DNA of 31,371 nt from the IMG/VR virus record IMGVR_UViG_3300005261_000049, positions 1-31,371 of that record, one strand, 5' to 3'. Each line of letters starts with the position of its first letter. The first letter of the stretch is position 1. Shown in pieces: positions 1 through 20,967 of this stretch. Both the position numbers and the translations under genes were made by a program. Below the pieces are notes generated by a model. It worked only from the letters and a program-made list of their open reading frames with translations, had not been told where the DNA came from and made no database searches. This DNA comes from a virus (taxonomy: Duplodnaviria; Caudoviricetes).

Positions 1-1242
1 ATGCCTCTCACAGACACTTTCGTTAAGCAGATCAAGCACTCAGGCCGGCCTGCCGGTGACAAGCACAGCGATGCACAGGGCCTGTACTTGCATGTCAAAG
101 AGGCGGGCAAGTATTGGCGCTTGGCTTACCGCTTTGGTGGCAAGCAAAAGACGCTGGCCTTGGGTGTCTATCCAGCAGTGAGCCTGGCGAACGCGCGGCG
201 CAAGCGGGATGAGGCCAGGGAGCAGCTGGCCCTGGGTGCTGATCCCGGTGTGCAAAAGCGCGTCCAAAAGATGCAGTCAACCCAAGCCGCGGCCAATACC
301 TTTGAGACGGTGGCCAGGGAGTTCCACGCGACCAAGGCAGATAGCTGGAGCCCTGGGCACTCCATGCGCTGGATGCGCAGCATGGAAAAGGATGTGTTTC
401 CGACAGTGGGCAAAATGCTGCTGCCCGATGTCACCGCTCCCCTGATGCTGACCGTGCTCCGCAAGGTGGAGTCCCGAGGGGCCAGGGAGACTGCCAGCAA
501 GCTCAAGGAGCAGTCCGGGCAAGTCTTTCGCTATGGCATCCAGACGGGCCGCTGTACCTCAAACCCGGTCCCAGACTTGTCCGGAGCTTTGGCGCCAGTC
601 GTTGTAAAGCACATGGCGGCAGTGCTGGATCCCAAGGCTGCAGGCGCGTTGATGCGCGCGATTGACGGTTACCAAGGGCAGCCTTTGACACGTGCAGCCT
701 TGCTGCTCTCCGCTCTGCTGTTCCAGCGCCCGGGCAACATAAGGGCCATGGAGTGGGCGTGGATCGACTTTGAGGCTGCAATGATGACCATCCCTGCAGC
801 CAGCATGAAGCGAACGATTGAGGGGAAGATTAACGGCCGGCCGCACTTTGTGCCGCTGGCTCCACAGGCCATTGAAGTCCTGAAAGAAATTCACGCCCTC
901 ACTGGCCATGGCCGGTACGTTTTCCCCAGCGCGCGCACCGGGGAAAGGCCCATGAGTGACGCGACGGTGGGGGCTGCACTTAGAAGGCTTGGCTACACCA
1001 GCGATGAAATGACCGCGCACGGGTTCAGAGCCATGGCCAGAACGCTTTTGATTGAGCGGCTGCCAGGCATTCAGGCGGATGTAATCGAAGCGCAGTTAGC
1101 GCACGGTAAGTCTGGCCCACTGGGTGCCGCCTACGACCGAGCGGACTACATGGAGCAGCGCAGGCAATTGATGAGCATCTGGGCCAATTACCTTGACCAG
1201 ATCAAGAGTGGCGCAGAGATCATTCAGTTCAAGCAGGCATGA
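1..1242 (+). CDS. int: P4-type (IntA-like) tyrosine integrase with N-terminal Arm-DNA-binding (DUF4102-like) domain
   Basis: N-terminal DAQGLYLHV...KYWRLAYRFGGKQKTLALGVYPAVSLA; catalytic residues R (FQRPGNIR), HGFR, H (QLAH), Y (AAYDRA). Confidence 0.96.
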   Translation: MPLTDTFVKQIKHSGRPAGDKHSDAQGLYLHVKEAGKYWRLAYRFGGKQKTLALGVYPAVSLANARRKRDEAREQLALGADPGVQKRVQKMQSTQAAANTFETVAREFHATKADSWSPGHSMRWMRSMEKDVFPTVGKMLLPDVTAPLMLTVLRKVESRGARETASKLKEQSGQVFRYGIQTGRCTSNPVPDLSGALAPVVVKHMAAVLDPKAAGALMRAIDGYQGQPLTRAALLLSALLFQRPGNIRAMEWAWIDFEAAMMTIPAASMKRTIEGKINGRPHFVPLAPQAIEVLKEIHALTGHGRYVFPSARTGERPMSDATVGAALRRLGYTSDEMTAHGFRAMARTLLIERLPGIQADVIEAQLAHGKSGPLGAAYDRADYMEQRRQLMSIWANYLDQIKSGAEIIQFKQA

Positions 1243-1711: not shown

Positions 1712-2704
1712 GTGGCAGAGACCAAGAACATTGACGAGATTGCAGGCCGTCTGTCGAAGTACGTCTTCAAGCACTTCTTGTGGGCCACGCATCCGAAGAC
1801 CGACGACAACTTTGAGTGCACTAACGAGAAACACGTTGGCGAGGGCGGGAAGCCGAAGGCGACACATCCGGGCGACGTGGTCTTTCACTACCGTGACCCG
1901 TATCTCGGGAAGACGGTGTACCTGCATACAGATCTGAAGAGCTACGCGGAGGACACGATCACATCAACAAGACTACGCGGTGCCTTCAAGTCCCTCTGCA
2001 TGACCATCGACTGCGCGCGATGCTCGGATGCCTGGAGAGCCAAGTATTCCGTTGATGAGGGCGAGGCCCATGAGGTCCGCGGACTATTGTTCGTCCACAA
2101 CCATGACAACGGCTATGACAAGCCGTTCTACGACGCCGTCGATAAGGTAAATCTGCAGGCACTGCCGGTCGCACCCGGAACGCAACTGCACTATCTTGGT
2201 CCTCATGACATTCAGCGGCTCTACAGCATTGCAAACGACATCATTCGCCTAAAAGGCGAAGGAGAGTTGCCCAGCACGTACACCTTCTACTACCCGGACC
2301 TGGTAATGACGCGCCGACAAGGCGACGTTTGGGATCAACCTGCGACCGTTGAAACGTTGACGGCGCCGTACATCATCATCAAGCATGGTGCGCATGAAGC
2401 TCAGTCGGCCGGCTACGTCATCTACTACAACGCGCCTGCAACCAGCCCCGAGGAGTTTGAGTACTTTCTGGATAGCCTGTCCAGATTCCAAATGCTGGAG
2501 TCGGGTGAGCGCATCTTGCTGCGCGTCACTCACCCAGACGCACCGAACGACCTCAAGTCAGTCTTTCTCATGGCGCAGAAGAAGTACGTGAAGGCCTGGG
2601 GTTTCGATCCTGAACGCGAGGCGCTCTTGAGTCAGATGCAGATCGAGCGGATCACAAGCGTCACCAGCACCTACAACCCGGGAGACATGGGGTGGCGGGA
2701 ATGA
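1712..2704 (+). CDS. Putative PD-(D/E)xK nuclease; candidate defence effector (GapS4a-like)
   Basis: GGAGG RBS at 1703-1707 before GTG; 330 aa; THPGDVVFHY...LHTDLKSY resembles the D...(D/E)xK motif. Confidence 0.6.
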   Translation: MAETKNIDEIAGRLSKYVFKHFLWATHPKTDDNFECTNEKHVGEGGKPKATHPGDVVFHYRDPYLGKTVYLHTDLKSYAEDTITSTRLRGAFKSLCMTIDCARCSDAWRAKYSVDEGEAHEVRGLLFVHNHDNGYDKPFYDAVDKVNLQALPVAPGTQLHYLGPHDIQRLYSIANDIIRLKGEGELPSTYTFYYPDLVMTRRQGDVWDQPATVETLTAPYIIIKHGAHEAQSAGYVIYYNAPATSPEEFEYFLDSLSRFQMLESGERILLRVTHPDAPNDLKSVFLMAQKKYVKAWGFDPEREALLSQMQIERITSVTSTYNPGDMGWRE

Positions 2705-3801
2705 AGAAGCGAGCACACGGTCCGTCGCTCTACTACGCAAGCGACAAGAACGTTTTCGACGCGCTGAACCAGCACAAGGTGGATACGCCCACGGTGGTGA
2801 AACTGTTTCAGCGCCGGAACATCGTGGTGAGCAAGAAGACGCCAAGAGACGAGCTGGCCAAGTACTTTTCCACGTTGACGCACGACTACTACGACCACAA
2901 AGAGATCGCTGCCAGGCTGGGAGTGGCGGTGAGGCGGGAGCGCACTACTTCGATGGATGTATCGGGGGTCAGCGATACCGACGAGCTGCAAGGCGTCGTG
3001 GAGCAGTTGAAGAAGGAGTTAGAGGCGAGCGGCGACACCGTCCAGGTTTCACGAGATGGTGACAACATCAGCATCCGCGTCCAGTACTCGGAGGTTGACT
3101 ACAAGCGCAGCGAGTTCTCGCAAGTCCAAGTCCGCGACGGAACCATCGAGTTCGTCAAGTCAGCGGCAGGCTACGTCGTGCGCAACACGCAGAACGACTA
3201 CCTCACTGGAGTAAGAGAGACCTTGCTTGCCAAGGTGGAAAAGTCGACATCTGCACCACTGACTAAGGTTGTGGTCGCCCTTTTTGACATTCCTTCGGCA
3301 AAGCTGCGTTCCAAGTTCTTCCATGAACTGGCACGCTCATTGCCTAACTTCGTCCGGCGCGATGTGACGGATGTGTATGTATTCAAAGCCAAGCCCGAGA
3401 CGGATGGCGATGCAGATGATGGCGACGACGATGGTTCGGGGAGCCACGTTGAGAGGGTCTTTCTTCGCGGCAGCGGCGTGAGTCGGTCTGAGATCTTGAA
3501 TGAGCTGCTGGATGAGGAGGACTACTACATCGTCAAGATTGGATGGACCGCGACGGAATTGCTCGGCGATGGCAACGTGTACGACGTCGAGGCCGCGTTT
3601 GCTGACCCCAAAGACTGCACCGGCTTCTCGTTTATCTTGAGCGGTGTTTTCCCATTGGAAGAGGGCAAAGTCTCGACGAAGCGGCGGCCCCCGTACAAGC
3701 ACGAGATTGACGCACTGTCGCGCGTGATCGAGTCGAAGGCCAGGGACCTAGTGGCCGAGCTACGGTCGGAATATCTTGCTGTGGACGCCGGGGGCGAGTG
3801 A
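2701..3801 (+). CDS. Hypothetical protein, gene 2 of candidate defence operon (N-terminus reminiscent of GapS4b)
   Basis: ATGA overlap with upstream stop; ~366 aa; acidic loop DGDADDGDDDG; family resemblance is from memory only. Confidence 0.6.
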   Translation: MKKRAHGPSLYYASDKNVFDALNQHKVDTPTVVKLFQRRNIVVSKKTPRDELAKYFSTLTHDYYDHKEIAARLGVAVRRERTTSMDVSGVSDTDELQGVVEQLKKELEASGDTVQVSRDGDNISIRVQYSEVDYKRSEFSQVQVRDGTIEFVKSAAGYVVRNTQNDYLTGVRETLLAKVEKSTSAPLTKVVVALFDIPSAKLRSKFFHELARSLPNFVRRDVTDVYVFKAKPETDGDADDGDDDGSGSHVERVFLRGSGVSRSEILNELLDEEDYYIVKIGWTATELLGDGNVYDVEAAFADPKDCTGFSFILSGVFPLEEGKVSTKRRPPYKHEIDALSRVIESKARDLVAELRSEYLAVDAGGE

Positions 3802-4481
3802 TGCAAACCAGGTACAGGTGGTTTCGGATACAGCTCCCTGCTCGGGCCAGAGACTTGGCAGCACTTGTGGCTACGCGCTCGTTCGATTCGACCTCGCCGT
3901 CGGGCTTCGCTCGTGTGCCAGGCGGCATAGACGGAACCTCATACCGATTTCTATGGCGGTCTCGCGTAGTCGTTACGCGGCTAGATGCCGAAGGGGTTCC
4001 GACCTATGAGCAGATCGACAGCGTCAGCTTTACAGACTTTGCGCTGGTCGCGGTTGGAGATCTGACCTTTCTCCGTATCGAGAACCCTGGCCGGAATGTT
4101 CGCGACCTACTCAATGCACTTGAGACCTTGGTCGGCATGGGCTTCACTGTGAAGCCGGTCGTATTCGACAAAGGCCAGCCCTCCACGGTGTTCCGTTCGG
4201 TTGATGCCTCAAAACTAGTAGGCTTAAAAGTCGTCGGTGCTGTGGTGTCCGACGATCTGGTCGCACGGATGGAGTTCGCTTCCAAAGAGGGGATGGTGGT
4301 CGAGAACATGACAGTTCTTGACGGCTTGAAGTACAAGGTTGAGCACGCAGTGTTCGAACTCGTCCTAGGCGGGTTAAAGGGGCAAATTGCTTTTGCCGCG
4401 AACGGAACTGTGAAGATCAGTGGTCAAGTCGCCCCGAAGCTCGTTGGCTTGGTGGAGCAGGACTTGCATCTATTCGTTTGA
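3801..4481 (+). CDS. Hypothetical beta-rich protein, gene 3 of candidate defence operon
   Basis: TGATG overlap with upstream stop (alternative GTG start at 3798); ~226 aa. Confidence 0.65.
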   Translation: MQTRYRWFRIQLPARARDLAALVATRSFDSTSPSGFARVPGGIDGTSYRFLWRSRVVVTRLDAEGVPTYEQIDSVSFTDFALVAVGDLTFLRIENPGRNVRDLLNALETLVGMGFTVKPVVFDKGQPSTVFRSVDASKLVGLKVVGAVVSDDLVARMEFASKEGMVVENMTVLDGLKYKVEHAVFELVLGGLKGQIAFAANGTVKISGQVAPKLVGLVEQDLHLFV

Positions 4482-5106: not shown

Positions 5107-5661
5107 TTAATGATCGCTATTTTTTTTGTCGGCCTGGGCGCGTTGCGCAATTAGCATCTCTAAATCTTTGCGCCGCGCTGCAAAGGAGTCTCGCAGGAAA
5201 TTTAGTTCGGCTAGAGCTGCATCCCGGTCACGAATGATTTTTTCGGCCTCAATGTGAAGTTGCTCGGCTTGTTCTTCTATCGCATCTAGCTCTGAGATCT
5301 TTTCTTCTGATCGCTGAAAGTCCGCATCGGTTTTTGCGTTCTGAGCTAGCAATTGACTTTCGACAGAGATCCGCTGGATTTGGTTGACGAGGTTTTCATT
5401 GCGGAGTTTGACCATGTCATACCGCATCGAGAGCATCAAGACTTTGTTTTCTAAGGAAGATACAAGCAACTCAATTTGTTGAGCTGATATTGGAGCACTA
5501 GCCTTAGTAGAAAAAGATTCCTCCAGCCTTGCCACGATCTCTGCGTTCAGTGTTCGATTGTTGGACTTTGCAACTTCTTTTAGGCGGTCGCGCATGCCGT
5601 CAGGCATACGAACAAGCACCTTGTCGGCCTGATCCGATGGATACAAGTTCTTTTCAGCCAA
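5107..5661 (-). CDS. Arc/Mnt-family ribbon-helix-helix repressor with C-terminal coiled coil
   Basis: YPSDQADKVLVRMPDGMRDRLKEVAKSNNRTLNAEIVARLEESF is a typical Arc domain; TTG start. Confidence 0.88.
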   Translation of the reverse strand: MAEKNLYPSDQADKVLVRMPDGMRDRLKEVAKSNNRTLNAEIVARLEESFSTKASAPISAQQIELLVSSLENKVLMLSMRYDMVKLRNENLVNQIQRISVESQLLAQNAKTDADFQRSEEKISELDAIEEQAEQLHIEAEKIIRDRDAALAELNFLRDSFAARRKDLEMLIAQRAQADKKNSDH

Positions 5662-5787: not shown

Positions 5788-5964
5788 ATGAGCGGTACGA
5801 ACAAAGAGCCGGTTCAGTCTGTTTACATGCGAATTAAGCAAGCAAACCACGATTGGCTGAAAGCACAAGCGGAAAAGGAGGAGCGCCCGGTAACTTGGAT
5901 TGTTAACAAGTTGATTGAGCAAAGCCGCAAATCAGAAGAGGCGCAGCATGAAAAGCAGGCCTGA
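5788..5964 (+). CDS. Small RHH (Arc/CopG-like) DNA-binding protein, 58 aa, absent from the ORF track
   Basis: GAAAGGA RBS; MSGTNKEPVQSVYMRIKQANHDWLKAQAEKEERPVTWIVNKLIEQSRKSEEAQHEKQA has a beta-strand-helix-helix pattern. Confidence 0.8.
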   Translation: MSGTNKEPVQSVYMRIKQANHDWLKAQAEKEERPVTWIVNKLIEQSRKSEEAQHEKQA

Positions 5965-6002
5965 AAAAGGAAACGCCCCGGTAGTTGGAGCTACCGAGGC
6001 GT
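5962..6002 (-). terminator. Stem-loop with a U-rich tail on the minus strand (possible antisense-RNA terminator)
   Basis: ACGCCcCGGTAG-ttggag-CTACCGaGGCGT (5973-6002) preceded on + by AAAAAGGAA. Confidence 0.45.
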
Positions 6003-6040
6003 CGAGTGTCAAAAACCAAGCAACCAAACAAGGAATCGAC

Positions 6041-6295
6041 ATGACGGATTCTAAAGCACCTGCCGTAGCAAGCACCAGCGTTTCGCAACAGGCCAGCCGC
6101 GCTCCTATAGTCAATACGTTCCAGTCTGCTCGCCCCAAGGCAGCAGCAAGTCTTCTCGGTGTGGGGGTCTCCACATTCTGGCGCTGGGCCAAAGAACGCG
6201 AGGACTTCCCGAAAGCACGCAAGTTGTCCAGCAGTTGCACCGTTTTTGATGTGCAAGAGCTGATGGCATGGCGTGATGCCCAAGCCAAGCAGTGA
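6041..6295 (+). CDS. alpA: AlpA-family HTH regulator/excisionase
   Basis: AAGGA RBS; RPKAAASLLGVGVSTFWRWAKEREDFPKARKLSSSCTVFDVQELMAWRD; upstream ATG at 5948 is possible. Confidence 0.88.
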   Translation: MTDSKAPAVASTSVSQQASRAPIVNTFQSARPKAAASLLGVGVSTFWRWAKEREDFPKARKLSSSCTVFDVQELMAWRDAQAKQ

Positions 6296-6562: not shown

Positions 6563-6817
6563 GTGAACATGAAGAACAAAGCCGCTCAGCCAGCGGCTCA
6601 GGCGGAGCTTTCCCTGGTTGATGCCATCGACAACATCCAGTGCCCGCTTCTTAAGGCGCAAGCCCTTTTGGCCATGACGTTTGGAGAGCCTGGGGAAGCC
6701 TTTCGATCTATGGGGGGCGACTACCAAGACCGTGTTTTTTGGACTATCAGCGACCTTGTGACCGAGGCCACCAAGGCCGTGACAGAGATGGCAGCGCTGG
6801 AGGGAGTGCAAGCATGA
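6563..6817 (+). CDS. Hypothetical small helical protein
   Basis: GGAG RBS; ATGA overlap with next gene. Confidence 0.75.
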   Translation: MNMKNKAAQPAAQAELSLVDAIDNIQCPLLKAQALLAMTFGEPGEAFRSMGGDYQDRVFWTISDLVTEATKAVTEMAALEGVQA

Positions 6818-7523: not shown

Positions 7524-8012
7524 ATGGCTCATAACAAGAAAAAGCCGGTAGATCCTAGAGGTCCCCACGTTCGCATCTACTGGGAGTTAATCGACTCTGT
7601 GGCATGGCGTAGCCTTGGCTATGCCAGCCAGAGCTTGTTCCTGTTAATGCGACGAAAGCTGATGGGCACCAACAACGGCAACATCTCTGCAACCTTGGGT
7701 GATCTCAAACACTATGGGTGGAAGTCCTCTTCCACGCTGGCAAAAGCGCTCAAGGAGCTCCAGTTGTTGGGCTTCATTGCTGTAACACGCCAGGGTGGGA
7801 TTGCCTTCGGGCAAAAAGTTTGTACCCTTTACCGCTTTACGGATGTCGATGTGTATGAATTCCCAAAGCTTGGATTTGGGCCAATAGCTGCTACTAACGA
7901 CTGGAAGAAGTTTGCCTCCTTGGCCGAGGCTGATGCTGCCTTGGCACTCACGGAGGAAAACAATTCCGGCCTTCGGATTTCGAAGCGTATCGGTTCGGAA
8001 TCCGAAGCGTAA
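7524..8012 (+). CDS. Winged-helix protein, putative replication initiator
   Basis: NNGNISATLGDLKHYGWKSSSTLAKALKELQLLGFIAVTRQGG resembles the wHTH of phage/island initiators; repeats sit at its 3' end. Confidence 0.65.
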   Translation: MAHNKKKPVDPRGPHVRIYWELIDSVAWRSLGYASQSLFLLMRRKLMGTNNGNISATLGDLKHYGWKSSSTLAKALKELQLLGFIAVTRQGGIAFGQKVCTLYRFTDVDVYEFPKLGFGPIAATNDWKKFASLAEADAALALTEENNSGLRISKRIGSESEA

Positions 8013-8175
8013 AACGGGCCTGTCGGTTCGAATTCCGAAGCAGTGGGCGTTTTACTACTTCAGAAACTGAAGCAGTAGAAAAAATCAAAATCCGCCTCTA
8101 ACCCGCATGCAGCCTAGTTTTCTGGGCCTTGCGGGTTTTTTAATGCTGGAAAGCTCACTGCTTCGAAATTCGAAC
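7971..8175. repeat. Five 15-bp imperfect palindromes (STTC...GAAS), putative iterons/origin
   Basis: CTTCGGATTTCGAAG 7971, GTTCGGAATCCGAAG 7993, GTTCGAATTCCGAAG 8026, CTTCAGAAACTGAAG 8058, CTTCGAAATTCGAAC 8161; first spacings 22, 33, 32 bp. Confidence 0.75.
8100..8141 (+). terminator. Putative terminator of the alpA-rep operon
   Basis: AACCCGCA...TGCGGGTT stem (with inner GCCTAG/CTGGGC) followed by a T-run. Confidence 0.55.
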
Positions 8176-8610
8176 ACCTTTATATGCTGCCATCCATGCA
8201 GCAAGTTAGAGGTGCAGATTAGGTCTGTGTCGCGGTGACCCAGAACGCCAAACGTCGGCCTGCACCCATCGATCTACGGGCTGTCTGAGCGGCTGATCAG
8301 CGGTGAACGGACCACCTGGCGCACGATATGCGATCTGGAGGACGGGTAGTGGATTGCAGGGGGGACAAATGCGGCCGTCACGCGTGACATTGCCGTGACT
8401 GTGCGTGACAGCAACGCATGAAACAGGATGATAGGTCAAGCGGTAACGGGCTTGGATCATTACGTGCATGCCGCCGTAACGTTTCATGTAACGCCTGTAA
8501 CGTTACATGGGCGCAGAAAGCTGGGTGCCGGGCTTCTGAGCCGTAGGCCTAGGAGCAGGGCGTGCCAAACTGTTCCCCAACCGTTGGATAGCAGTTTCGC
8601 AACTGTTGCC

Positions 8611-8674
8611 AAACCCTTTCTTGAAGGCTTGGGCAAACCCTTTCTTGAAGGCTTGGGCAAAGCGTTTCTGGAAG
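8611..8674. repeat. 24-bp tandem repeat AAACCCTTTCTTGAAGGCTTGGGC x2 plus a degenerate third copy
   Basis: 8611-8634 identical to 8635-8658; AAAGCGTTTCTGGAAG at 8659-8674. Confidence 0.9.
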
Positions 8675-9916
8675 CGACTGCGGCAATGGGCCGCCTGGTC
8701 CTTGGCCTAGAAGCCCCTCATAAGGGCCTTGGAAGGGGCTTGATAGGGCAAGAGAACAATCATCATGATGGTGATGTAGGCCTTAGGGAGGCGTTGCGGA
8801 TGGGTCACGAACCCACAAGATTTGCCCACCGCTTCAGAGTAGCCTGTTTTTTTAAACATGCTGGACATGTGTACAGTTCTCCATGTAGACTCCTCCATGT
8901 CGGTGTCCGCCAGCACAGACGAAACGGAATAGGGCTCTTTAGCCTTAGCTCTGCGCCCGCAAGGGTACACGCTGGCGGGCGTTGCAGAGTTAGGACTAAA
9001 GGGCTTTTTTGTTGGAGTACTGGCCGAAGTTCGCAGTACGCAAAGTGGGACTAAGAACCCAGCAGCAATGATCCTCCCGACTCAGCCTGACTGGACGCTG
9101 TAAGACCGCTCTAGAGGCCGCCGTAGCAGTGTTGAGAGACCACGGGGGAACCTTCCCAAGTCAACGCCATAAGAGTGACCCGCAAGGGTATGCAGCAACG
9201 GCGAGAAGGGGCGCATGCAGAGCGCGTAATGCTGCAAGCTGTCACGCTGCACTGATGACAGTCCGATAAAGTCCGAAGGCTCGTCCGCACTGGGTGCCAA
9301 GGAATCGGTAAACGCTAAGGGGCTTGCGCAGCCTCTTAGGTGAGAGTTTGCCGATTTGCAGAACCGAAACTGAACCGCTTGGGATTCCCGCCTGTTTGTG
9401 ATAGCTAAAACAGGGGAAAAATGCACACGCTGCGCTTCGCGCTGGAAAAAATGCCGTTTTTCGGGTGAAAAACCCAAAAAAATTTCGCTAGCGCGGCACC
9501 GCTTACCAATCACCTCTCCAGTAACTGCTGTCTTGCGTGCAAAACATGCACATCGACGGCACAGAATGCCCCGCAGTTCAGCCGCAGCGCTGTTTTCGCA
9601 CTATGGCCGCACAGTGGGGTCATGAGCCAAACCACCACACTTAAACCAACAGACCAACCTCCGGTTGATCTACGCCTCACCCCCGCAGCACAGGCATACA
9701 AAGCCGCTGTATTGCGAGACCTGGCGAAGAGCTGGCGCAACGAGGCGCATCATGTTACGGAACTGACGCGCTCTGAGCTGTCACCTGATGCCCGAACTGG
9801 TACCCGTGCAGCTTTGACCGTATGGAGGGCCGCGCGCCAACCTAGGTAGCCAGTTCGGCTTGGGCCGCTTGTTTGGACGCAGTCGAGCGCGGGGCTCCGC
9901 GTGTAAAAGCTACCCG

Positions 9917-9990: not shown

Positions 9991-10716
9991 ATGAACCAAC
10001 TCACTGTAGCGGGCCGTGCGCCCCTGACCATGACCAGTGCCGAGATTGGCGAGCTGGTCGAATCACGCCATGACAGTGTGAAGCGCACCATTGAACGCTT
10101 GGCCGATCGTGGTGTGATTCAACTTCCACCATTGGTGGATGTTCCAAACCACCTTGGTCAGACCGTAAGCGTCTACCAACTTGAGAAGCGTGACAGTTTG
10201 GTGGTGGTGGCCCAGCTCTCGCCCGAGTTCACAGCCCGCATCGTGGACCGCTGGCAAGAGTTGGAAGCACAGCAGGCACCAGCCTTGCCCGCCACCTACC
10301 TCGACGCCCTGCGCGCGCACCTTGCGTCTGAGGAAAAAGCCGCGGCCCTGGCCATTGAAGTCCAGAAGAAGGAGCAGGCCCTGGTGGAAGCGGCCCCCAA
10401 GGTGGAGTTCGTCGAGCGATATGTGCAGGCCAGCAGCGGGGCCTTGGGTTTCCGCCAGGTCTGCAAGACGCTGTGCCTCAATGAGAAGTGGCTGGCCGAG
10501 TTCTTGGAGCTGCACCAGATCATGTACCGCTTGGGCGGAAAACTCACCCCCTACCAGCAGCACATCCAGGCCGGCCGCTTTGAAGTGAAGACCGGTGTGT
10601 CGGATAGCGGCTATGGCTATGTGCAGCCCAAGTTCACCCCCAAGGGGGTGCAGTGGCTGGCCGCAGAGATTGCCAAGCACCATGCAGCCAAGCAGATGAA
10701 GGCGCTGGCAGCTTGA
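9991..10716 (+). CDS. Phage antirepressor: Rha-type N-terminal domain + ANT/KilA-C domain
   Basis: MTSAEIGELVESRHDSVKRTIERL...FTARIVDRWQELE (Rha); APKVEFV...PYQQHIQAGRFEVK...FTPKGVQWL (ANT). Confidence 0.9.
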   Translation: MNQLTVAGRAPLTMTSAEIGELVESRHDSVKRTIERLADRGVIQLPPLVDVPNHLGQTVSVYQLEKRDSLVVVAQLSPEFTARIVDRWQELEAQQAPALPATYLDALRAHLASEEKAAALAIEVQKKEQALVEAAPKVEFVERYVQASSGALGFRQVCKTLCLNEKWLAEFLELHQIMYRLGGKLTPYQQHIQAGRFEVKTGVSDSGYGYVQPKFTPKGVQWLAAEIAKHHAAKQMKALAA

Positions 10717-11543: not shown

Positions 11544-12233
11544 ATGAACCAGTGTGCAACGCAAGAAGGTGCTGCCGGCACCGCAGCTGTCGCTGATGGG
11601 CTGCGCATCAGCAGCATCACAGAGACAGCGCGCCGGCAGCTCAAGAGGGCGGAGAACAAGGCGGCTACAGCCAAGAAGAAGCTGGATGGGGCCATCGCCA
11701 GCAAGAGCAGCCGCACCCAGATTCTGGAGGCCATCGCCTCGCTGCATGAATCGGAAGTGGTGATTTCCAGGCAGCGCCTGCAGACCATCACGGGCTTGAA
11801 GCAATACGTCGTAGATGACAACCTCAATACGCTTGTCAATGAGGGAGTCTTGCGTCGATTGGTGGCAGGCGTTTTCGCACCGGTAGTGACTTACCGGGAA
11901 TCACGCTCGATCTCTCATACCTTGCTGCCTGACGGCACCTCCAAGCTGGAGCTGGGGGAGCTGTGCATTGATCTGACGCCCAAGGAGCGCCGCATGTTGG
12001 GAAGCATGCTGATGGGCGACGCAGCCTTTCTCAGCAACTTGCAAACAACGCACGACTTCAACGTCTTGGCCAGTGAACTGACCACCTGCATGTTGCTGCT
12101 GCGCAGGACCACTGCCTTTCAAGAACAAATTGGCGAGCAATTGGGTGTCACCGTGGATCCCGCAACCAAGGGCCTTGGTGATCGCTTGGCAGTGCTCGCT
12201 GACCGTTTGATTGAAGGCTCTTATCGCTCCTAA
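11544..12233 (+). CDS. Hypothetical winged-helix-like phage protein upstream of terS
   Basis: GGAG RBS; QILEAIASLHE...SRQRLQTITGLKQYVVDDNLNTLVNEGVLRRLVAGVF is wHTH-like. Confidence 0.7.
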   Translation: MNQCATQEGAAGTAAVADGLRISSITETARRQLKRAENKAATAKKKLDGAIASKSSRTQILEAIASLHESEVVISRQRLQTITGLKQYVVDDNLNTLVNEGVLRRLVAGVFAPVVTYRESRSISHTLLPDGTSKLELGELCIDLTPKERRMLGSMLMGDAAFLSNLQTTHDFNVLASELTTCMLLLRRTTAFQEQIGEQLGVTVDPATKGLGDRLAVLADRLIEGSYRS

Positions 12234-12258
12234 GCGCCAGGACATGAGGGACGAGACC

Positions 12259-13032
12259 ATGACACAAGAACCCATCAAGACCCGGGCGCAGCGCTCCAAC
12301 GCGGACTGGGGCGCTATTGAGATGCTCTACAAGACGACAGCCATTTCCGTTCGCCAAATTGCGAAAGATCACGGCGTGAGCGGACCAGCTATCGCCAAGC
12401 GTGCCGCCAGAGACAAGTGGGTGCGGACAGCAGTGTGTGGCGCCCAGCAAATCCCAGCAGCCACTGAAGAGGTGCAAACCGATTTCAACCGTGAAGTGGG
12501 AAGCCAAGACGCCTGCAAAGCTGAGCCAGCTGGAAACCAAGTGCAAACCGGAAAGCGTGGCCGCAAGAGCAGCTACACCCCAGAGTTGGGTACTCACATT
12601 TGCCTGGAGATTGCAGGTGGCAAGAGCCTTCGCAAGGTGTGCTCCATGGAGGGCATGCCGGATATGAGCACTGTCCTTCGGTGGCTGGCAGATGACGAGA
12701 AGGAATTTTTCCACAAGCAATACGCGCGCGCGTGCGAGGCCCGTGGCGTCTCTTTGGCAGAAGAAGCGATGGAGATCGTTGACCAGCCAGTCAAGACGCC
12801 GCTGGAGTTGGCGCACAACAAAGCCAAGGCCGATCAACGCAAGTGGTACGCATCCAAGCTATCCCCCAAGCGCTTTGGCGACAAGCTGGCCGTTGGCGGT
12901 GCTGATGACCTGCCTCCCGTGCAAGTCCAAGAGCGTGAGCTGACAGAGGCAGAGCGCGCTGTGCGGGTGCTCAACGCCCTCAAGAGCACGCCGGATCTGA
13001 TTGCATCGCTGGTGTCTGGCGTTCAGGGGTAA
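12259..13032 (+). CDS. terS: Terminase small subunit (Sf6/P22-like core with an extra N-terminal HTH)
   Basis: GRKSSYTPELGTHICLEIAGGKSLRKVC...MPDMSTVLRWL...QYARA...RKWYASKLSPKRFGDK; sits before terL; start may be 12244. Confidence 0.88.
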   Translation: MTQEPIKTRAQRSNADWGAIEMLYKTTAISVRQIAKDHGVSGPAIAKRAARDKWVRTAVCGAQQIPAATEEVQTDFNREVGSQDACKAEPAGNQVQTGKRGRKSSYTPELGTHICLEIAGGKSLRKVCSMEGMPDMSTVLRWLADDEKEFFHKQYARACEARGVSLAEEAMEIVDQPVKTPLELAHNKAKADQRKWYASKLSPKRFGDKLAVGGADDLPPVQVQERELTEAERAVRVLNALKSTPDLIASLVSGVQG

Positions 13033-13035
13033 GCC

Positions 13036-14598
13036 GTGGCTGCAGAGTTGGACATCAACAAGGTCATTCAAGCCCTCAAAGGCATGACTCCAGAGGCCAA
13101 AAAGGCGCTGGACGCTGTGCTGCTGGCTGACGCGCCTATCTGGGTGCCGCAAGAAGGCCCGCAGCGCGCTGCTTATGACTCGCTGGCTGACATCGTTTAC
13201 TACGGCGGTTCTGCCGGCGGTGGCAAGACTGACCTGCTACTTGGCTTGGCCCTGACAAAGCAGCGTCACAGCATTCTCTTTCGGCGCCAGTCGGTGCAAT
13301 TGACCGGCATTGAAGAGCGCATGACCAAGATTCTGGGCTCACGTGACGGCTACAACGGACAGACCGGCATTTGGCGTTTGCCGTCCAAGCGCGTGCTTGA
13401 GCTGGGGCATTGCAAGGATCCTGGGGATTGGATCAAGTACCAAGGCCGCCCCCACGATGCCAAGCTGTTTGACGAGATTCCTCACTTCACAGAGACGCAA
13501 TTTCGCAACCTGATCGGCTGGCTGCGTTCTGATGACCCCTCGGTGCGTCAGCGCGTGGTGTGCGCCGGTAACCCCCCTACAGACCCAGAAGGCGAGTGGG
13601 TCAAGCGCTTTTGGGCTGCGTGGCTTGATCCGATGCACCCCAATCCAGCCAAGCCTGGTGAGCTGCGTTGGTACATCACCAACGACAAGGGCGAGGATGA
13701 GGAAGTCAGTGGTCCAGAGGACGTGCTGGTGAATGGTGAACCGGTCAAACCCATGAGCCGCACCTTCATTCCATCCAGTGTCGACGACAACTACTTCCTG
13801 ATGGCCACGGGCTACAAGCAGAAGCTGCAGGCGCTTCCAGAGCCATTGCGCTCTCAAATGCTGCGCGGCGACTTCAATGCGGGTTCTGTCGATCCTGCAT
13901 GGCAGTTGATCCCCACGGATTGGGTCAAGGCCGCACAGGCGCGCTGGGAGAAGAAAGAGGCCAAGGGCACGATGACCGCGCTGGGCTTCGATCCTTCCCG
14001 TGGTGGCCAAGACAAGTCTTCGATAGCACGCCGCCATGGCCAGTGGTTTGACGAGCTGGTGACCGCGCCCGGTTTGGTGACCAAGGACGGCCCTACAGCG
14101 GCTGCGTTCGTTGTGCCGCACGTCCGTGACGGTGCCTGCATCTGTGTGGATGCGATCGGCATTGGATCCAGCGCCTTGGACTTCCTGGTGGGCCTGAACC
14201 TCAATGTCCTACCCGTGGTGGGCTCTGAGGGCTCTGGGCTGATGGACAAGGCTGGCCAGCTGCGCTTTCGGAACAAGCGCGCCGAGATGTATTGGCGGCT
14301 GCGTGAAGCACTGGACCCCACCGTGCCTGAGCCCATCGCGCTGCCACCAGACCAAGAGCTGCTGGGTGACCTGACCGCCGTTCGCTACAAGGTGGTGACC
14401 ATGGGCAGCAAGTCAGCCATTCAGATGCGCAGCAAGGACGAAATCCGCGAAGCGCTTGGCCGCTCCCCAGACAAAGGGGACGCAGTGGCCATGACCTTTA
14501 TCTCCGACATCCCCGCACCTAAGGCAGAGCGCGCTCCAAAAAGCTGGCGCGACCGCCTGAAAAAGCACAGCGGTGGTGGCAACTACATGACTGCGTGA
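13036..14598 (+). CDS. terL: Terminase large subunit
   Basis: Walker A YGGSAGGGKT, Walker B LFDE, CAGNP coupling motif, RNase H-like GFDPSRGGQD and SPDKGDA. Confidence 0.95.
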   Translation: MAAELDINKVIQALKGMTPEAKKALDAVLLADAPIWVPQEGPQRAAYDSLADIVYYGGSAGGGKTDLLLGLALTKQRHSILFRRQSVQLTGIEERMTKILGSRDGYNGQTGIWRLPSKRVLELGHCKDPGDWIKYQGRPHDAKLFDEIPHFTETQFRNLIGWLRSDDPSVRQRVVCAGNPPTDPEGEWVKRFWAAWLDPMHPNPAKPGELRWYITNDKGEDEEVSGPEDVLVNGEPVKPMSRTFIPSSVDDNYFLMATGYKQKLQALPEPLRSQMLRGDFNAGSVDPAWQLIPTDWVKAAQARWEKKEAKGTMTALGFDPSRGGQDKSSIARRHGQWFDELVTAPGLVTKDGPTAAAFVVPHVRDGACICVDAIGIGSSALDFLVGLNLNVLPVVGSEGSGLMDKAGQLRFRNKRAEMYWRLREALDPTVPEPIALPPDQELLGDLTAVRYKVVTMGSKSAIQMRSKDEIREALGRSPDKGDAVAMTFISDIPAPKAERAPKSWRDRLKKHSGGGNYMTA

Positions 14599-14606
14599 GG
14601 CAATCC

Positions 14607-16730
14607 ATGAGCAATCCAAAAGCACGTGCCAATTGGGACCGTTGGCAGTACGGCAAGAACCGTGGCCATATCGACTACATGGAGCAGGCCGACCGCTGCG
14701 AACAGATGTATTTGGGTGGTGGCCGACAGTGGCGCGCCGAAGATCGCGCCTTTGTGGAGGGGCAAAAGCGCCCAGCCCTGGAGTTCAACGAAATCAAGGG
14801 AGCGGTCAATACCGCCATTGGCTACCAGATCCAGAACCGGATGGACATCGCTTTCAAGCCCCGCGGTGGTGAGGCTGACCTGGCCACGGCCACGATCTTG
14901 TCCAAGGTGGCCATGCAGGTGGCCGACCAGTGTGGCCTGCACTGGAAAGAAACGCAGGTGTTCAGCGATGGGCTGATTCAGCAGCGCGGCTACTTCGACG
15001 TGCGGATGAACTTCGACCAGAACATTCATGGTGAGATTCAAGTCGATACACTGGATCCGCTGGATGTCATGCCCGACCCGGATGCCAAGACCTACGACCC
15101 CAAGGGCTGGTCTGATGTGACGATCTCGCGCTGGCTCACCCTGGATGAAATCGAAAACCGCTACGGCAAGAAGGCTCGCAAGATCGCTGACGAGAGCGGT
15201 GATGCTGGCTATGACTTTGGCGATGCTGGTGATGATGGCCCAGAGCGCAACAAATTCGGTGCAGGCGGCGTTGCTGGTGTGGCTGAGGCATTCAGCAGTC
15301 AAGCCGAAGGGCCGCATCGCTTTCGGGTGATTGACCGCCAGATTCGTGTCTACAAGCTCACGAAGTGCGTGGTGTTTCCTGATACGGGCGATGTGCGCCC
15401 CGTCGATCAGCTCTCCGCGGAGTCGCTGGCAGACGCACTGGCCAAGGGGGCTGTGGAAACCAAGCGCATGCAGCACCGCATTGAGTGGGTGGTCAGCACT
15501 TGCACCAGCGTGCTGCATGATGCAACAAGCCCCTACGATGATTTCACGGTGGTGCCGTACTTCGCGTACTTCCGCCGTGGCCTGACGGTGGGCATGGTGG
15601 ACGATGCGATTGGCCCTCAGGAGGCACTGAACAAGGCTGTGAGCCAGTTTGTGCACATCCTCAACACTTCGGCCAATAGCGGCTGGATCACCGAAGAGAA
15701 CTCCATTACCAATATGGATTCGGGAGAGTTGGAGCAGCGCGGTGCCACGACTGGCTTGCATATTGAGGTGAAGAAGGGGGCGAAGCCTCCCCAGAAGATC
15801 AAACCCAACGAAGTGCCAACAGGTGTGGATCGCCTGATCGACCGCGCTGACAAGGCCATCAGGGATGCGACGGTGCCCGATGTGCTGCGTGGTTCTGCAG
15901 GACCAGAGGTGGCAGGCGTGGCTATCCAAAGCCGCCAGTTTGCAGGGCAGCAGCAGCTGGCCGTGCCGCTGGACAACCTGGCATACACCCGCAGGCTGCT
16001 GGCGCGCCGTATCTTGGCCTTGATCCAGACCTTCTACGATGCCCACCGCATTTTTCGGATCACGGAAACCAACCCTTACACCGGCAAGCAAGAGGTGGAG
16101 ACGGTGGAGATCAACCAGTACGACGGTGCTACTGGTGGCTATTTCAACGATGTGACGGTGGGCACCTATGACGTGGTGATCACTGAGCAGCCCATGCAGG
16201 TCACGTTCCAGAACAGTCAGTTCAACCAGGCTCTGGAGATGCGCAAGGCCGGCATCCGCATCTCGGATGCCATGGTGGTGCGCTACTCCAACCTCCAGGA
16301 CAAGCACGAGATCTTGCAGGGCCTGCAGCCTGCACCGCAGGAGTCGAACCCCGTGGATGCTGCACGCGCCGCTTTGTTGCAAGCGCAGGCCAACCGCACA
16401 GCCAAGGAAGCTGACCGTACTGAAGCCCAGACGCGAAAGATCGATGCAGAGGCTACCAACAAGCAAGTGGAGACGCAGTACAGCGCCGTGCAGACAGGCC
16501 AAGTGATTGCTGCCAATCCCGCTGTGTCTGGTTTGGCCGATGGCCTGCTGCGCTCTGCAAATTTCAAAGACCACGATGCCGCGCCCATCGTGCCTGAGGT
16601 GGATGCGAATGCAGCCCTCAGCGTGCCTGCCAACGTGCCCACCAACACCAACCCTTTAACCCCCGCCAACCCCAGCGTTGGCATGAATCGCGGCATCAGA
16701 ACCCCTGATGCAGATGGCGTGCAACCCTAA
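14607..16730 (+). CDS. Portal protein (P22/N4-like podoviral type, long C-terminal barrel)
   Basis: Follows terL; ~707 aa; QW...RPALEFNEIK, IGPQEALNK, GVAIQSRQ motifs; C-terminal coiled coil. Confidence 0.88.
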   Translation: MSNPKARANWDRWQYGKNRGHIDYMEQADRCEQMYLGGGRQWRAEDRAFVEGQKRPALEFNEIKGAVNTAIGYQIQNRMDIAFKPRGGEADLATATILSKVAMQVADQCGLHWKETQVFSDGLIQQRGYFDVRMNFDQNIHGEIQVDTLDPLDVMPDPDAKTYDPKGWSDVTISRWLTLDEIENRYGKKARKIADESGDAGYDFGDAGDDGPERNKFGAGGVAGVAEAFSSQAEGPHRFRVIDRQIRVYKLTKCVVFPDTGDVRPVDQLSAESLADALAKGAVETKRMQHRIEWVVSTCTSVLHDATSPYDDFTVVPYFAYFRRGLTVGMVDDAIGPQEALNKAVSQFVHILNTSANSGWITEENSITNMDSGELEQRGATTGLHIEVKKGAKPPQKIKPNEVPTGVDRLIDRADKAIRDATVPDVLRGSAGPEVAGVAIQSRQFAGQQQLAVPLDNLAYTRRLLARRILALIQTFYDAHRIFRITETNPYTGKQEVETVEINQYDGATGGYFNDVTVGTYDVVITEQPMQVTFQNSQFNQALEMRKAGIRISDAMVVRYSNLQDKHEILQGLQPAPQESNPVDAARAALLQAQANRTAKEADRTEAQTRKIDAEATNKQVETQYSAVQTGQVIAANPAVSGLADGLLRSANFKDHDAAPIVPEVDANAALSVPANVPTNTNPLTPANPSVGMNRGIRTPDADGVQP

Positions 16731-16740
16731 GGAGAACGAC

Positions 16741-16932
16741 ATGGCCAAAGACAAAAACCTGATTGCTACCTCTGGCGACCACGACAAATGGCAAGCCGAG
16801 GATGACATGCGCACCCTGGCGCGCGCCGAAGAAATTCGCAAGGACGCCAAGCGCTTTAAGGCCGCCGTGGCCATGGCCAAAGAGAAGGTCAAGGAGCTGG
16901 AAGCCCTGCAGCAACTCTCTGCCAAGTCCTAA
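16741..16932 (+). CDS. Small hypothetical head-module protein
   Basis: AAGGAGA RBS; 63 aa, WQAEDDMRTLARAEEIRKD. Confidence 0.75.
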   Translation: MAKDKNLIATSGDHDKWQAEDDMRTLARAEEIRKDAKRFKAAVAMAKEKVKELEALQQLSAKS

Positions 16933-16974
16933 GCACAACGTAGCCAGGCAATCCACCCACCACAGGAGAACAAC

Positions 16975-17916
16975 ATGCCCGCATTTATTCGCAACCTGCT
17001 GAACCGCCGTCTCATGAACCAGTTGGCTGAGGGCCAAGACTTACCCGGCGATGCCCAGGCAGCTGCTGACGAGCTGCAAAACGACGATGACTTTGCATCG
17101 ATTGAAGGACTGGATCGTGGCGATGGTCCAGGGCCTCAGACTGAGGCACCGCAGACAGCAGTTACACCAGCTGTTGATGTGAACTTGGAGGCGCTCAAGG
17201 CAATCGCGGCTTCAGCCGCCGACGAAGGCGCTGGTGATGAAGCAAAGCCACACGTGGGCAGCGTGCCAATGCCGCGCTTCCAAGAGGTTAATGAGCGCCG
17301 CAAACAGGCAGAAGCCGCGCTGGAAGCGGCCCAGGCAGAGTTACAAGCCGCGCGCAGCAAGAGCATTCCCAGCGAAGCGCTGGATGCCCTGGAAGAGAAG
17401 TACACGGCTGCCATGATGGATGGCAACACCAAGGAGGCTGTCAGTATTCGCCGCCAGATCAACCAGCATATTGAAGAGCAGGCCGTGCTGCGCATCAAGA
17501 ACGAGCAGGCACAGCGTCAAGCGGCACAGGCCAGCAGTGACTTTGTGGATTCATTCCTGAGTGCAAACCCATGGCTGAACACTGAAGAAGGCATGAAGGT
17601 TCAGGACATCCTGGCGGACTTGGTGGAGGTGCGCGTGCATCGTGGCGAGCCGTTCGAGAAGGCATTCCAAGACGTGGCAAATGAGATTCTGCCGCGTTAC
17701 GCGCCCGCAAACAGTGGGCCACCTGCTGCTGTTGACCCACGCGCCGCCAACTCGGTCAAGCGCGGGGCACAGGCTGCGGCTGCCCAAGCACCATCGATGC
17801 AAGGCGGGTTTGGCAATCGCGCCATGGGTACGGCGATGTATGACATCAACACCATCAGCGATGAAGACTTCATGAAGCTGAGCGAGGAAGACAAGGCGCG
17901 CATGCGTGGTGGCTGA
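16975..17916 (+). CDS. Putative capsid scaffolding protein
   Basis: AGGAGA RBS; acidic, coiled coil, VPMPRFQEVN motif, C-terminal ISDEDFMKLSEEDKARMRG; lies between portal and MCP. Confidence 0.75.
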   Translation: MPAFIRNLLNRRLMNQLAEGQDLPGDAQAAADELQNDDDFASIEGLDRGDGPGPQTEAPQTAVTPAVDVNLEALKAIAASAADEGAGDEAKPHVGSVPMPRFQEVNERRKQAEAALEAAQAELQAARSKSIPSEALDALEEKYTAAMMDGNTKEAVSIRRQINQHIEEQAVLRIKNEQAQRQAAQASSDFVDSFLSANPWLNTEEGMKVQDILADLVEVRVHRGEPFEKAFQDVANEILPRYAPANSGPPAAVDPRAANSVKRGAQAAAAQAPSMQGGFGNRAMGTAMYDINTISDEDFMKLSEEDKARMRGG

Positions 17917-17934
17917 TGCCAGCTCTTGAGCCTA

Positions 17935-17976
17935 CCCCCCTAAGGTTGTGAAAACCTGGGGGTGGGGTGGAAACTT
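17935..17976 (+). promoter_or_regulatory. Conserved promoter-like motif, copy 3 (upstream of MCP)
   Basis: CCCCCCTAAGGTT (T at 17941); GAAACTT at +29. Confidence 0.65.
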
Positions 17977-18187
17977 CAGTTCACTCGCAGGAGGCCAGCA
18001 CGCTCGCTGAAACTGGCCACCTTTCTTAACTCTAGCGAATCAGCCACGTGGTGAGGCGTTAAGTCGCCACCGTCTTTATAGCCCGACGCAAAACGGCTTG
18101 GCCGCTTGGCTGCCTCATTGCCATGTCTCCGCCTTTAGGGCTGCGCATGCCCGGACACAAGTACCAACTACTGCAAAAGGCATTGCC

Positions 18188-19294
18188 ATGTCGTACACCG
18201 AATTTGGAAAGCTGAGCGAGGCTCAAGTCAAAGTGTGGGCCAAGGATCTGTGGCTCACCGCAAAACACAACTCTTTCGTGAACCGTTTCATGGGCACGGA
18301 CCAGGGCTCGATGATCCAGGTGGTCAAGGAACTGACCAAGACCTCCAAGGGCGACAAAGCCATCATCCAGCTGGTCGGTGACCTGCAAGAAGACGGTGTT
18401 GTCGGTGACAACGAGAGCGAAGGCAACGAAGAAGCGATGCAAGCGCACGTCCAGGAAATCAAGCTGGACATGATCTCGCACGCTGTGATCAACAAGGGCA
18501 AGCTGTCCGACCAGCGCTCTACGATCAATTTCCGCAGCACCGGCAAGAACAGTCTGGCCGAGTGGCTGAGCCAGCGCATTGATGAGCTGGCCATGCTCAC
18601 CGCCGCGGGCATCAGCTATGAGTACAAGACGAATGGCGCCAAGCGCAGCAGCAATTCGCAATTCCCTGTGCTGGAATTTGCGACCGATGTGAAGGCGCCT
18701 ACGTCTGAGCGTGGCCTGATGTGGACCGGCGCTGGCCTGGACTACTCCAGCACCGCCAACATCACGAATGCGTTTGTGCCCAAGTACAACATGATTGTGG
18801 ACTTGGTGACCCGCGCCAAGGAGCAGCGCATTCGCGCCCTGCGCAGTGGCGGCAAGGACTACTACGTGGTTCTGGTGGCTCCTGGCACGCTGGGCGCGCT
18901 CAAGAAAGACCCTGACTACAAGGACGCGCTGGTGGCCTTGGCGTCGCGTGATGGCCAGAACTCGCCCTGGTTCACAGGCGCTACCGTCACCATGGACGGC
19001 GCCGTGATCCATGAGCACAGCGATGTGTTCAACACCAAGGGCGCAGCAGCTGGCGCCAAGTGGGGTGCGGGCGGCAACGTCAACGGCACACGCACCATGC
19101 TGTGCGGCGCTCAAGCGCTGGCCATGCTGGACCTGGGCCTGCCCGACTGGAACGAGAAGTCGTTCAACTACGGCAAGCGCCATGGCATCAACGTGGACAA
19201 GTTCCTGGGCCTGCTGAAGCCTCAGTTCGAGTCGGCAGTGACCGGTGCCGTGGAAGACCACGCCATCCTCACCTGTGACCACTACCTGGCTTAA
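18188..19294 (+). CDS. Major capsid protein, N4-gp56/DUF4043-like family
   Basis: AAAAGG RBS; ELTKTSKGD...GVVGDNESEGNEE; LCGAQALA; position after scaffold; strongly biased codons. Confidence 0.88.
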   Translation: MSYTEFGKLSEAQVKVWAKDLWLTAKHNSFVNRFMGTDQGSMIQVVKELTKTSKGDKAIIQLVGDLQEDGVVGDNESEGNEEAMQAHVQEIKLDMISHAVINKGKLSDQRSTINFRSTGKNSLAEWLSQRIDELAMLTAAGISYEYKTNGAKRSSNSQFPVLEFATDVKAPTSERGLMWTGAGLDYSSTANITNAFVPKYNMIVDLVTRAKEQRIRALRSGGKDYYVVLVAPGTLGALKKDPDYKDALVALASRDGQNSPWFTGATVTMDGAVIHEHSDVFNTKGAAAGAKWGAGGNVNGTRTMLCGAQALAMLDLGLPDWNEKSFNYGKRHGINVDKFLGLLKPQFESAVTGAVEDHAILTCDHYLA

Positions 19295-19366
19295 CCAGGG
19301 CTCCCGCTTAAGGGCGGGGCCTTGGGGCTCCGTCCTTCCTGCAACCATTCTCGAAGGACAAAGATC

Positions 19367-19768
19367 ATGGCCATCAAAAAGATCGCAGCCCGCCAGGAGC
19401 CGCAAGTCGCAATCCTGACCATCAAGCACTCTGACGTGACCGCCTACGGTACTGCAGAGCCCGCCATCGACGTGCCTGGTGGTGCCATCGTCACCGGAGG
19501 CGACATCACCGTGGTGGAGCCTTGGAATAGTGGCACCACGGCCACGCTCAAGCTGGGCGACAAAGCAGATGATGACCGCTACACCGCAGCGGCGGTGGAC
19601 CTGAAAACCGCAGGCCGCACCGCGCTGACCTTGACCGGCCACAAGCACGTTGGCATCGAATCCCTGCAGGCACTGCTTGCCCAAACTGGCGCTGCAGCCA
19701 CCAAGGGTGAAGTGCGCATTACGGTCCAGTACCTCACCGAAGGCCGCGCGACCGCATCGCTGGGCTGA
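19367..19768 (+). CDS. Putative capsid cement/decoration protein
   Basis: Beta-rich, 133 aa, directly after MCP (IDVPGGAIVTGG...WNSGTTATLKLGD...GEVRITVQY). Confidence 0.65.
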   Translation: MAIKKIAARQEPQVAILTIKHSDVTAYGTAEPAIDVPGGAIVTGGDITVVEPWNSGTTATLKLGDKADDDRYTAAAVDLKTAGRTALTLTGHKHVGIESLQALLAQTGAAATKGEVRITVQYLTEGRATASLG

Positions 19769-19783
19769 TCCTGTGTAGTGGAT

Positions 19784-19840: not shown

Positions 19841-19851
19841 GGGAGCCAACC

Positions 19852-20961: not shown

Positions 20962-20967
20962 GTGCTT

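Follow-up and report, generated by a model that had tools for sequence, protein, structure and literature searches.

A non-coding tract of a putative phage satellite carries phased repeats resembling those inside several families of phage initiator genes, beside a predicted structured RNA

The incA cluster of P1 and the incC cluster of F are groups of iterons that bind the replicon's own Rep without firing. Strict capsid-forming PICIs combine an HK97-type head with a primase-helicase module. Bacteriophage lambda has its origin within the O gene, where iterons together with an AT-rich tract define it, and shows an inhibition phenotype for which, when oop is present, ITN3-4 without the AT-rich tract are required; multicopy plasmids with lambda O/ori but without oop RNA gave no inhibition, and the authors reject handcuffing alone (PMC3349717). 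The PLE of Vibrio cholerae lowers helper replication 3-4-fold (PMC7145576).

The locus discussed here lies in the window, by which we mean the whole stretch of DNA analysed, a single virus record of 31,371 bases. The left part of a 1.7-kb tract within it (8200-9900) carries four repeat blocks, A to D, and probably binds initiator proteins of several helper phages, a reading to which we give a probability of about 0.75. The closest working likeness is to P1 incA and F incC, as non-firing, initiator-binding iteron arrays (binding being predicted here), but the blocks differ from the element's own origin repeats and match the initiators of other phages; this mismatch with the own origin places the array outside the plasmid inc type. 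With the lambda origin the array shares phased repeats of a kind found inside initiator genes, and the source genes here show repeats followed by an A-rich tract; unlike that origin, the array's repeats lie outside any initiator gene, belong to four families and lack an A-rich tract. The lambda inhibition phenotype is similar in placing iterons without an AT-rich tract on another replicon, beside a transcribed RNA (transcription is predicted here), and in being aimed at the start of phage replication; it differs in its artificial plasmids, its single specificity and its need for oop, to which the RNA module of our tract shows no link (PMC3349717). The PLE is likewise a satellite with its own initiator and an iteron origin in a long non-coding region with other repeat types, whereas it has one helper and, in the parts of these sources consulted, no helper-derived iterons are described (PMC7145576, PMC8263062). 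A search of largely open-access literature turned up no account of iteron arrays that are non-cognate and drawn from several families. The features of the window are as follows.

1 to 1242, plus strand: tyrosine integrase that includes an arm-binding domain, at the element's left end (Pfam PF00589, PF22022, PF13356)
1712 to 4481, plus strand: three-gene defence cargo resembling PADLOC Hp1, Hp2 and Hp3 (E 7.6e-79, 3.1e-40 and 0.003)
5107 to 5661, minus strand: Arc-like regulator, divergent from the AlpA-like gene
5915 to 6295, plus strand: AlpA-like regulator, divergent from the Arc-like gene
7524 to 8012, plus strand: initiator-like protein (own Rep), 162 aa; weak O-like and DnaD-like PHROG matches (E 0.006-0.008)
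7965 to 8200, no strand assigned: own predicted origin, inverted TTCGGA(A)TCCGAAGC-type repeats around an AT-rich core; layout repeated in L001 and L002
8258 to 8361, plus strand: broken 100-bp piece of an O-like initiator gene, helix-turn-helix region (tblastn E 1.5e-11; blastn 73% over 100 bp)
8377 to 8412, no strand assigned: block A, GTCACG/CGTGAC, four copies; initiator family A, best matches L627 and L622
8443 to 8508, no strand assigned: block B, GTAACG/CGTTAC; initiator family B, best match L614
8568 to 8675, no strand assigned: block C, AACNGTT, AACCCTT and a 24-bp tandem; initiator family C, best matches L446, L637 and L445, 0/30 shuffles
8710 to 8750, no strand assigned: block D, AAGSSSCT, three copies at 11 bp; initiator family D, best matches L630-L635
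8862 to 8891, plus strand: sigma-70-like promoter site, consensus match 9/12
8898 to 9393, plus strand: predicted structured RNA module, about 500 bases; 80-82% identical copies in L505 and L606
9394 to 9740, no strand assigned: further phased repeats (GGAAAAATGC, CCGCAG, others), phasing z 3.4-4.9
9622 to 9849: 75-aa ORF, no family, between the RNA module and ant
9991 to 10716, plus strand: Rha/ANT antirepressor-like gene (ant), opening the late block (Pfam PF09669, PF03374)
11544 to 31371, plus strand: podovirus-type head module with terminases, P22-like portal, capsid, SU10-like adaptor and two ejection-type proteins (LPD domains)

The closest relative of the element is G001, in Comamonas halotolerans, whose gene order is as in the window. 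At its right end a tRNA-like sequence comes directly after the last ejection gene, along with genes of the host, and neither tail nor lysis genes are seen; on these grounds the element is read as a tail-less head-forming phage satellite, its right flank being taken from this relative; the window record, which stops at the stop codon of the last ejection gene, likewise holds no tail or lysis genes. Satellite features present are the integrase, AlpA and a replication module, along with a chromosomal attachment site seen in the relative (tRNA-like, read by eye). With its P22/SU10-like head, its ejection proteins and a relative without tail or lysis genes, the element appears to be a podovirus-type counterpart of the capsid-forming satellites. 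It resembles capsid-forming PICIs in its integrase, AlpA and own head genes and in a closest relative devoid of tail and lysis genes, and departs from them in its P22-like portal, SU10-like adaptor, ejection proteins and lone winged-helix Rep with no primase-helicase. The head/ejection region of G001 lies in L091 and in L438 (18650-20000), and its large ejection-type gene (L091 3-5489, L438 19265-19999) lacks the counterpart of query residues 666-1585 of the window's 2777-aa protein. The Hp1-Hp3 cargo, which we take to be the system named '3HP', occupies an integrase-proximal site in the window; G001 has instead a type III R-M system and Mrr between origin and array.

Small ORFs separate the AlpA-like gene from the 162-aa initiator-like gene, the end of which is overlapped by the inverted repeats and AT-rich core of the element's own origin. 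A window ORF at 6563-6817 resembles by eye one at 3111-3404 (minus strand) of L606, a plasmid-like contig that also bears the RNA module. The structure model of the own Rep (pLDDT 82) predicts a lone winged-helix domain, the C-terminal domain being absent from it; Foldseek with this model gave weak winged-helix matches, none at E<=0.001, and none of the 27 scanned proteins of the window matched a primase or helicase family. Small integrase-bearing elements of Betaproteobacteria commonly carry the Rep family (131 loci), with an integrase match in 59 of the 134 loci examined. The head module is common to many larger prophages and is also shared by 80 terminase-anchored phage loci. The own Rep and a 229-aa ORF, as single queries, found no viral loci. 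Comparison of the tract by blastn with 401 Comamonadaceae genomes gave 14 short matches, G001 being the sole informative one; whole tract or blocks against 50,697 annotated phages gave chance-level pieces only, and an exact scan of genomes for the 24-bp tandem gave 0 matches.

The original prediction saw the tract as a gene-free mosaic of short repeat blocks, several of them at helical-turn spacing. Every motif that it listed is present in its place, the five-member AACNGTT series being exact at three (8568, 8579 and 8601) and degenerate at the other two (8590 and 8612), and the helical phasing is borne out against shuffled DNA by a 10-12-bp excess with z about 6 and 0/500 shuffles as high. 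Over 8200-9650, shared 4-mers at lag 11 number 17 against 4.7 in dinucleotide shuffles (z 5.9), and 5-mers pooled over lags 10-12 number 15 against 3.6 (z 6.0, 0/500 shuffles as high); the signal is the same without the 24-bp tandem (8610-8674, 2.7 copies), and lags 13-19 are at chance level. By segment, z is 3.9-4.0 for 8360-8770, 4.7-4.9 for 9394-9900 and 1.5 for 8898-9393, where 53-68 of 500 shuffles were as high. There is no clear excess of perfect palindromes (for 12-mers, 2 versus 0.4, with 13/200 shuffles as high). The absence of a credible gene holds overall, the exceptions being the broken initiator piece at 8258-8361 and the 75-aa ORF from 9622, which belongs to no family, has no homologue in the loci tested and stands where P1-type immunity operons have a small inhibitor gene. 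A 208-aa ORF (8428-9054) was rejected as a gene, as it has no family and a 1-base deletion at 8433 breaks its frame in 2 of the 4 runs examined. The stretch is present in 20 listed runs of 13 studies, and among the four runs examined one contig from another run covers all of it, so that the tract is not an assembly artefact; one run carries a variant with a 20-base deletion within block C. Contigs of run X17 cover 7581-8904, without the RNA module; that X17 is RNA is a guess, and these contigs have no bearing on expression. The tract is two things, an initiator-repeat part on the left and an RNA module in the middle.

That the blocks would be iterons of unrelated phage initiators is supported for A-D, each of which matches a different initiator family, and is not supported for CCCGCAAGGGTA, GTCCG and GAACCG, which belong to the RNA module, or for CTCCATGT, which overlaps a promoter-like site; none of these four has a match better than shuffles in the 72 initiator ORFs described below. 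Nor does the tract align end-to-end to a single decayed gene. A single decayed initiator gene was accordingly rejected, 8258-8361 alone aligning at length; this scrap matches a Comamonas prophage initiator, L460 (0/30 shuffles as high), of a fifth family apart from those of A-D. Exact-pattern scans of the collection gave 162 loci in total (B 23 and 16, D 47, A 76). An ORF of at least 100 aa lies over the match at 141 of them, the other 21 being set aside and read separately, and these ORFs cluster to 96 at 70% identity. For the A, B and D patterns an initiator-type PHROG (replication-initiator, O-like, replisome-organiser, DnaD-like or primosomal) is among the best five for 75 of the 96 clustered ORFs, a figure that may be set against the general expectation of a single initiator gene among the dozens that a phage carries. 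By pattern the initiator-type ORFs are 43/49 for A, 14/17 for D and, for B, 14/19 viral and 4/11 genome, with the matches mostly in the mid-protein linker just ahead of a low-complexity acidic run. The block C pattern (16 fixed bases) behaved otherwise: 34 of its 40 loci are chance, and the remaining 6, all of one family, lie in an initiator-like linker. The bare 12-bp palindrome falls in initiators at 6/30 Comamonas loci.

Direct alignment used a set of 72 central ORFs from Comamonadaceae prophage initiator loci, including a few wrong frames, fetched with four PHROG families, two of which were chosen after matching A/B/D, so that the set favours A-D. Block scores against it are 42 for A, 54 for B, 54 for C and 38 for D, each beating 30/30 shuffles and each best with a different initiator family; the null maxima are 40, 40, 44 and 36, which leaves D a narrow margin (38 versus 36). 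The matches run over 26-50 bases, past the core motif. Blocks E, H, I, J and K were equalled by 30, 14, 5, 3 and 13 of 30 shuffles; since the set favours A-D, the miss of J or K is no disproof. The linker (origin) cluster of the respective family is where A and B align, whereas C and D align best to an N-terminal repeat cluster. This additional cluster, which lies within the N-terminal part of the coding sequence and some 250 bp ahead of the linker repeats, is seen in 15/25 genes (L443, L445, L446, L614-L616, L618, L630-L637). Comamonas prophages with all four initiator families were found, and the repeats of the element's own Rep and origin differ from A-D. Single orphan blocks of family A, B or D also occur outside ORFs in distant hosts (L155, L210, L214, L215, L226, L242, L257).

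Of what makes an O-type origin, the array thus has phased repeats matching those inside initiator genes (C more weakly in the collection scan); it has neither an adjoining cognate initiator gene, only the 100-bp scrap of a fifth family being there, nor an A- or AT-rich tract beside the repeats. The latter was sought in the 120 bases after the linker repeats of initiator genes, where the best 30-base window is 50-67% A in all 25 of the 26 Comamonadaceae A-D genes examined in which a cluster could be detected, and reaches 50% A or more in 50/75 initiator genes of the collection. On the array side the value is at most 43% A in either direction at 9/9 blocks or arrays measured (four blocks of the window, three of G001, and the arrays of L309 and L344), 43% being the background 90th percentile of the window. 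Because the lambda origin is defined by iterons and an AT-rich tract, we infer by analogy that the A-rich tract of the initiator genes is an unwinding element; iterons without an unwinding tract are what the array shares with the plasmid inc type. The absence of the tract disfavours use of the blocks as stand-alone origins, and it may reflect which cluster was captured rather than selection, given the second, N-terminal cluster in 15/25 genes to which C and D best align.

Arrays of this kind recur in other small integrated elements, mostly just ahead of the packaging genes. In G001, B, C and D follow one another as in the window, immediately upstream of the ant promoter; no more than 34 bases can be aligned between the two, and the G001 array lies 8.2 kb from the origin, beyond a type III R-M/Mrr cargo. 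A motif-dictionary scan placed clusters of at least three motif families within 450 bp at three loci only, namely the window, G001 and a Pseudomonas element (L093, L107, L254), against 0/80 terminase-anchored phage loci (1.18 Mb) and 0 shuffles. A motif-free scan adds L309 (origin, array, capsid gene), L344 and L318, and arrays in L163, L652 and L658 came from other scans; z-values for the arrays of other elements are inflated, their windows having been picked after the repeats were seen. The array precedes capsid or HNH-terminase genes in L309, L658 and L163; in the window, L309 and L658 no more than a few hundred bases separate it from the own origin that it follows. Block scores against the initiator set reach 42-52 in G001, L344 and L107 (null maximum 36) and 38-40 in L309 and L318, a level once reached by chance inside the RNA module. 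A TCAACG block of the other arrays lies in an initiator at 0/12 loci from 301 Pseudomonadaceae genomes. A crude density test, by which the array of the window is missed too, shows dense arrays in 2/93 Rep-anchored loci, and arrays are a minority feature among Rep loci. In G477, several direct repeats of about 30 bases (L613 3060-3420) separate an SSB-like gene from the capsid gene.

The middle of the tract is of another nature. The RNA module, which contains the CCCGCAAGGG, GTCCG and GAACCG motifs, is 80% identical over 8898-9387 to L505 1090-1585 (minus strand), found via the GTCCG scan, and has another copy at L606 2222-2721 (minus strand). The former stands ahead of SSB and HK97-type head genes and the latter on a small contig bearing ParA and Replicase/PriCT genes; the three carriers of the module are different kinds of small replicon, and it is absent from G001. 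The CTCCATGT pair (8879, 8893) overlaps the promoter-like site ahead of the module, and TTGACA-led sites stand at the corresponding place in L505 and L606. Compensatory changes affect 14/136 pairs across the three copies (0/500 shuffles as many), a covariation that leans in favour of the structure, itself built from these three sequences. Where only one side of a pair has changed, G-U pairing is preserved on the plus strand, and CCCGCAAGGG and CCCGAAAGGG replace one another, as expected of a GNRA-loop hairpin. Two 5' folds are possible in all three copies, one a long hairpin with a U run (8932-9013) and the other pairing 8905-8914 with 8973-8982; the folding energy of the whole module is not unusual (z -1.2). 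Rfam 15 gave no match for 8898-9393 beyond one sub-threshold hairpin and none for the L505 and L606 copies, and a covariance model of the core gave only weak matches (<=20 bits) in 151 genomes and nothing further in 79 sources; the plasmids searched held no match. A simple consensus scan found no minus-strand promoter of the ColE1 RNA I type. Hammerhead, group I, group II and RNase P were considered and rejected, since their motifs are not conserved in the three copies and Rfam has no match.

The module is predicted to be separate cargo, an attenuator-led leader or a small RNA. The P4 CI and P1 C4 antisense leaders and ColE1 RNA II are alike in being promoter-led structured RNAs with alternative 5' pairings, ahead of an antirepressor and of about 500 bases, and unlike in that the module has no Rfam match or detected antisense promoter and is absent from G001. 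Of about 280 GTCCG loci, 120 were read, mostly non-coding triples, with L505 the one true homologue. Triple GTCCGA at 10-11 bp is common in non-coding DNA (L486-L605), often about 630 bases from a prophage end, and in this resembles integrase arm sites. The repeats at 9394-9740 have no match above shuffles in the 72 initiator ORFs, a set that favours A-D.

How the array might have arisen and what it might do can be set out as follows. The blocks would have been captured from initiator genes, as the 100-bp gene scrap suggests, and repeats inside such genes would, by analogy with lambda O, be the binding sites of the encoded proteins. Initiators of several helpers would then bind the blocks, and since these are helper-initiator repeats without an A-rich tract, they would bind and not fire. 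In an amplified satellite the array might act as decoy or 'handcuff' to damp helper replication, and a satellite with its own heads, dependent on a helper for tail and lysis, would gain by limiting helper DNA. The support is block identity, the four families, the missing tract, recurrence in small elements and the relative without tail or lysis genes. That a decoy or handcuff against helper replication is the main use is a tentative proposal to which we give somewhat less than even odds: each block has only 2-5 repeats, and the lambda origin plasmids that fail to inhibit without oop also count against it.

Other readings would keep initiator binding and assign it another use. Helper initiators bound to the blocks might lend their C-terminal helicase-loading domain to the satellite's nearby origin, any matching helper serving, a form of hijacking that is unlikely and yet agrees with a 162-aa Rep of no modelled C-terminal domain, with the lack of primase or helicase families among the 27 scanned proteins, with arrays within a few hundred bases of the own origin in the window, L309 and L658, and with the PLE, which has its own RepA and depends for replication on its helper (PMC7145576). 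It fits poorly with G001, whose array lies 8.2 kb from the origin beyond the restriction cargo, and with the Rep relatives, most of which have no dense array, so that Rep appears not to need one. The G001 array stays beside the ant/packaging promoter though cargo separates it from the origin, and L309, L658 and L163 hold theirs ahead of capsid or HNH-terminase genes. This is what would be expected if bound helper initiators switched a downstream promoter, coupling ant and head expression to the induction of several helpers. Such a sensor is nevertheless distinctly unlikely, given that such elements in any case tolerate insertions between origin and packaging genes, that the window has 110 bp and then the RNA module between array and late genes, and that no phage initiator is known to us to serve as an activator. 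The notion that each block is a back-up origin, firing alone when its helper initiator appears, draws on the alignment of A and B to the linker (origin) cluster of their families; with no A-rich tract beside any block in either direction, it is scarcely credible.

Whether the blocks bind helper initiators at all is the more basic matter. Repeated short illegitimate exchanges with the origins of co-resident prophages might have left functionless initiator scraps, and the 100-bp gene scrap, the indels and 20-base deletion among close variants and the patchy presence are all of a kind with neutral relics. Against this there is only one coding scrap to four repeat blocks, G001 retains the motif, phase and order of B-C-D while the intervening sequence has diverged, and arrays recur in unrelated elements, which makes mere relics quite improbable. 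Alternatively, the repeats could be convergent sites for the element's own or host proteins, such as AlpA/Arc operators or integrase arm sites, as many winged-helix proteins bind 10-11-bp phased repeats. The GTCCG triples, mostly non-coding, many near prophage ends and with few initiator-like ORFs in the 120 loci read, would suit this, as would the 9394-9740 repeats, which match none of the 72 initiator ORFs. It is highly improbable for A-D, which match initiator genes over 26-50 bases, each a different family, in an element that encodes too few such proteins for four specificities. For the left part, a multi-specificity cassette that binds helper initiators is the reading that we prefer.

In light of these comparisons, satellites may gather libraries of origin repeats from unrelated helpers, one block per initiator family, with spacer-like gain and loss, trapping or borrowing initiators by means encoded purely in DNA, here coupled to an undescribed 500-base attenuator RNA; we hold the odds for this broader picture to be evenly balanced. 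The interference and helper sensing known from satellites work, to our knowledge, through proteins or RNAs, and a non-coding cassette that reads several helpers through their initiators would, if real, be a new layer. If true, each block names its initiator family, which would provide a sequence rule for satellite-helper pairs, and from the list of blocks one could predict the phages that a satellite holds back or exploits. The RNA module offers a further lead, independent of the array. Finally, the array would be a natural test of an old question, namely whether phage replication can be silenced by iterons acting in trans.
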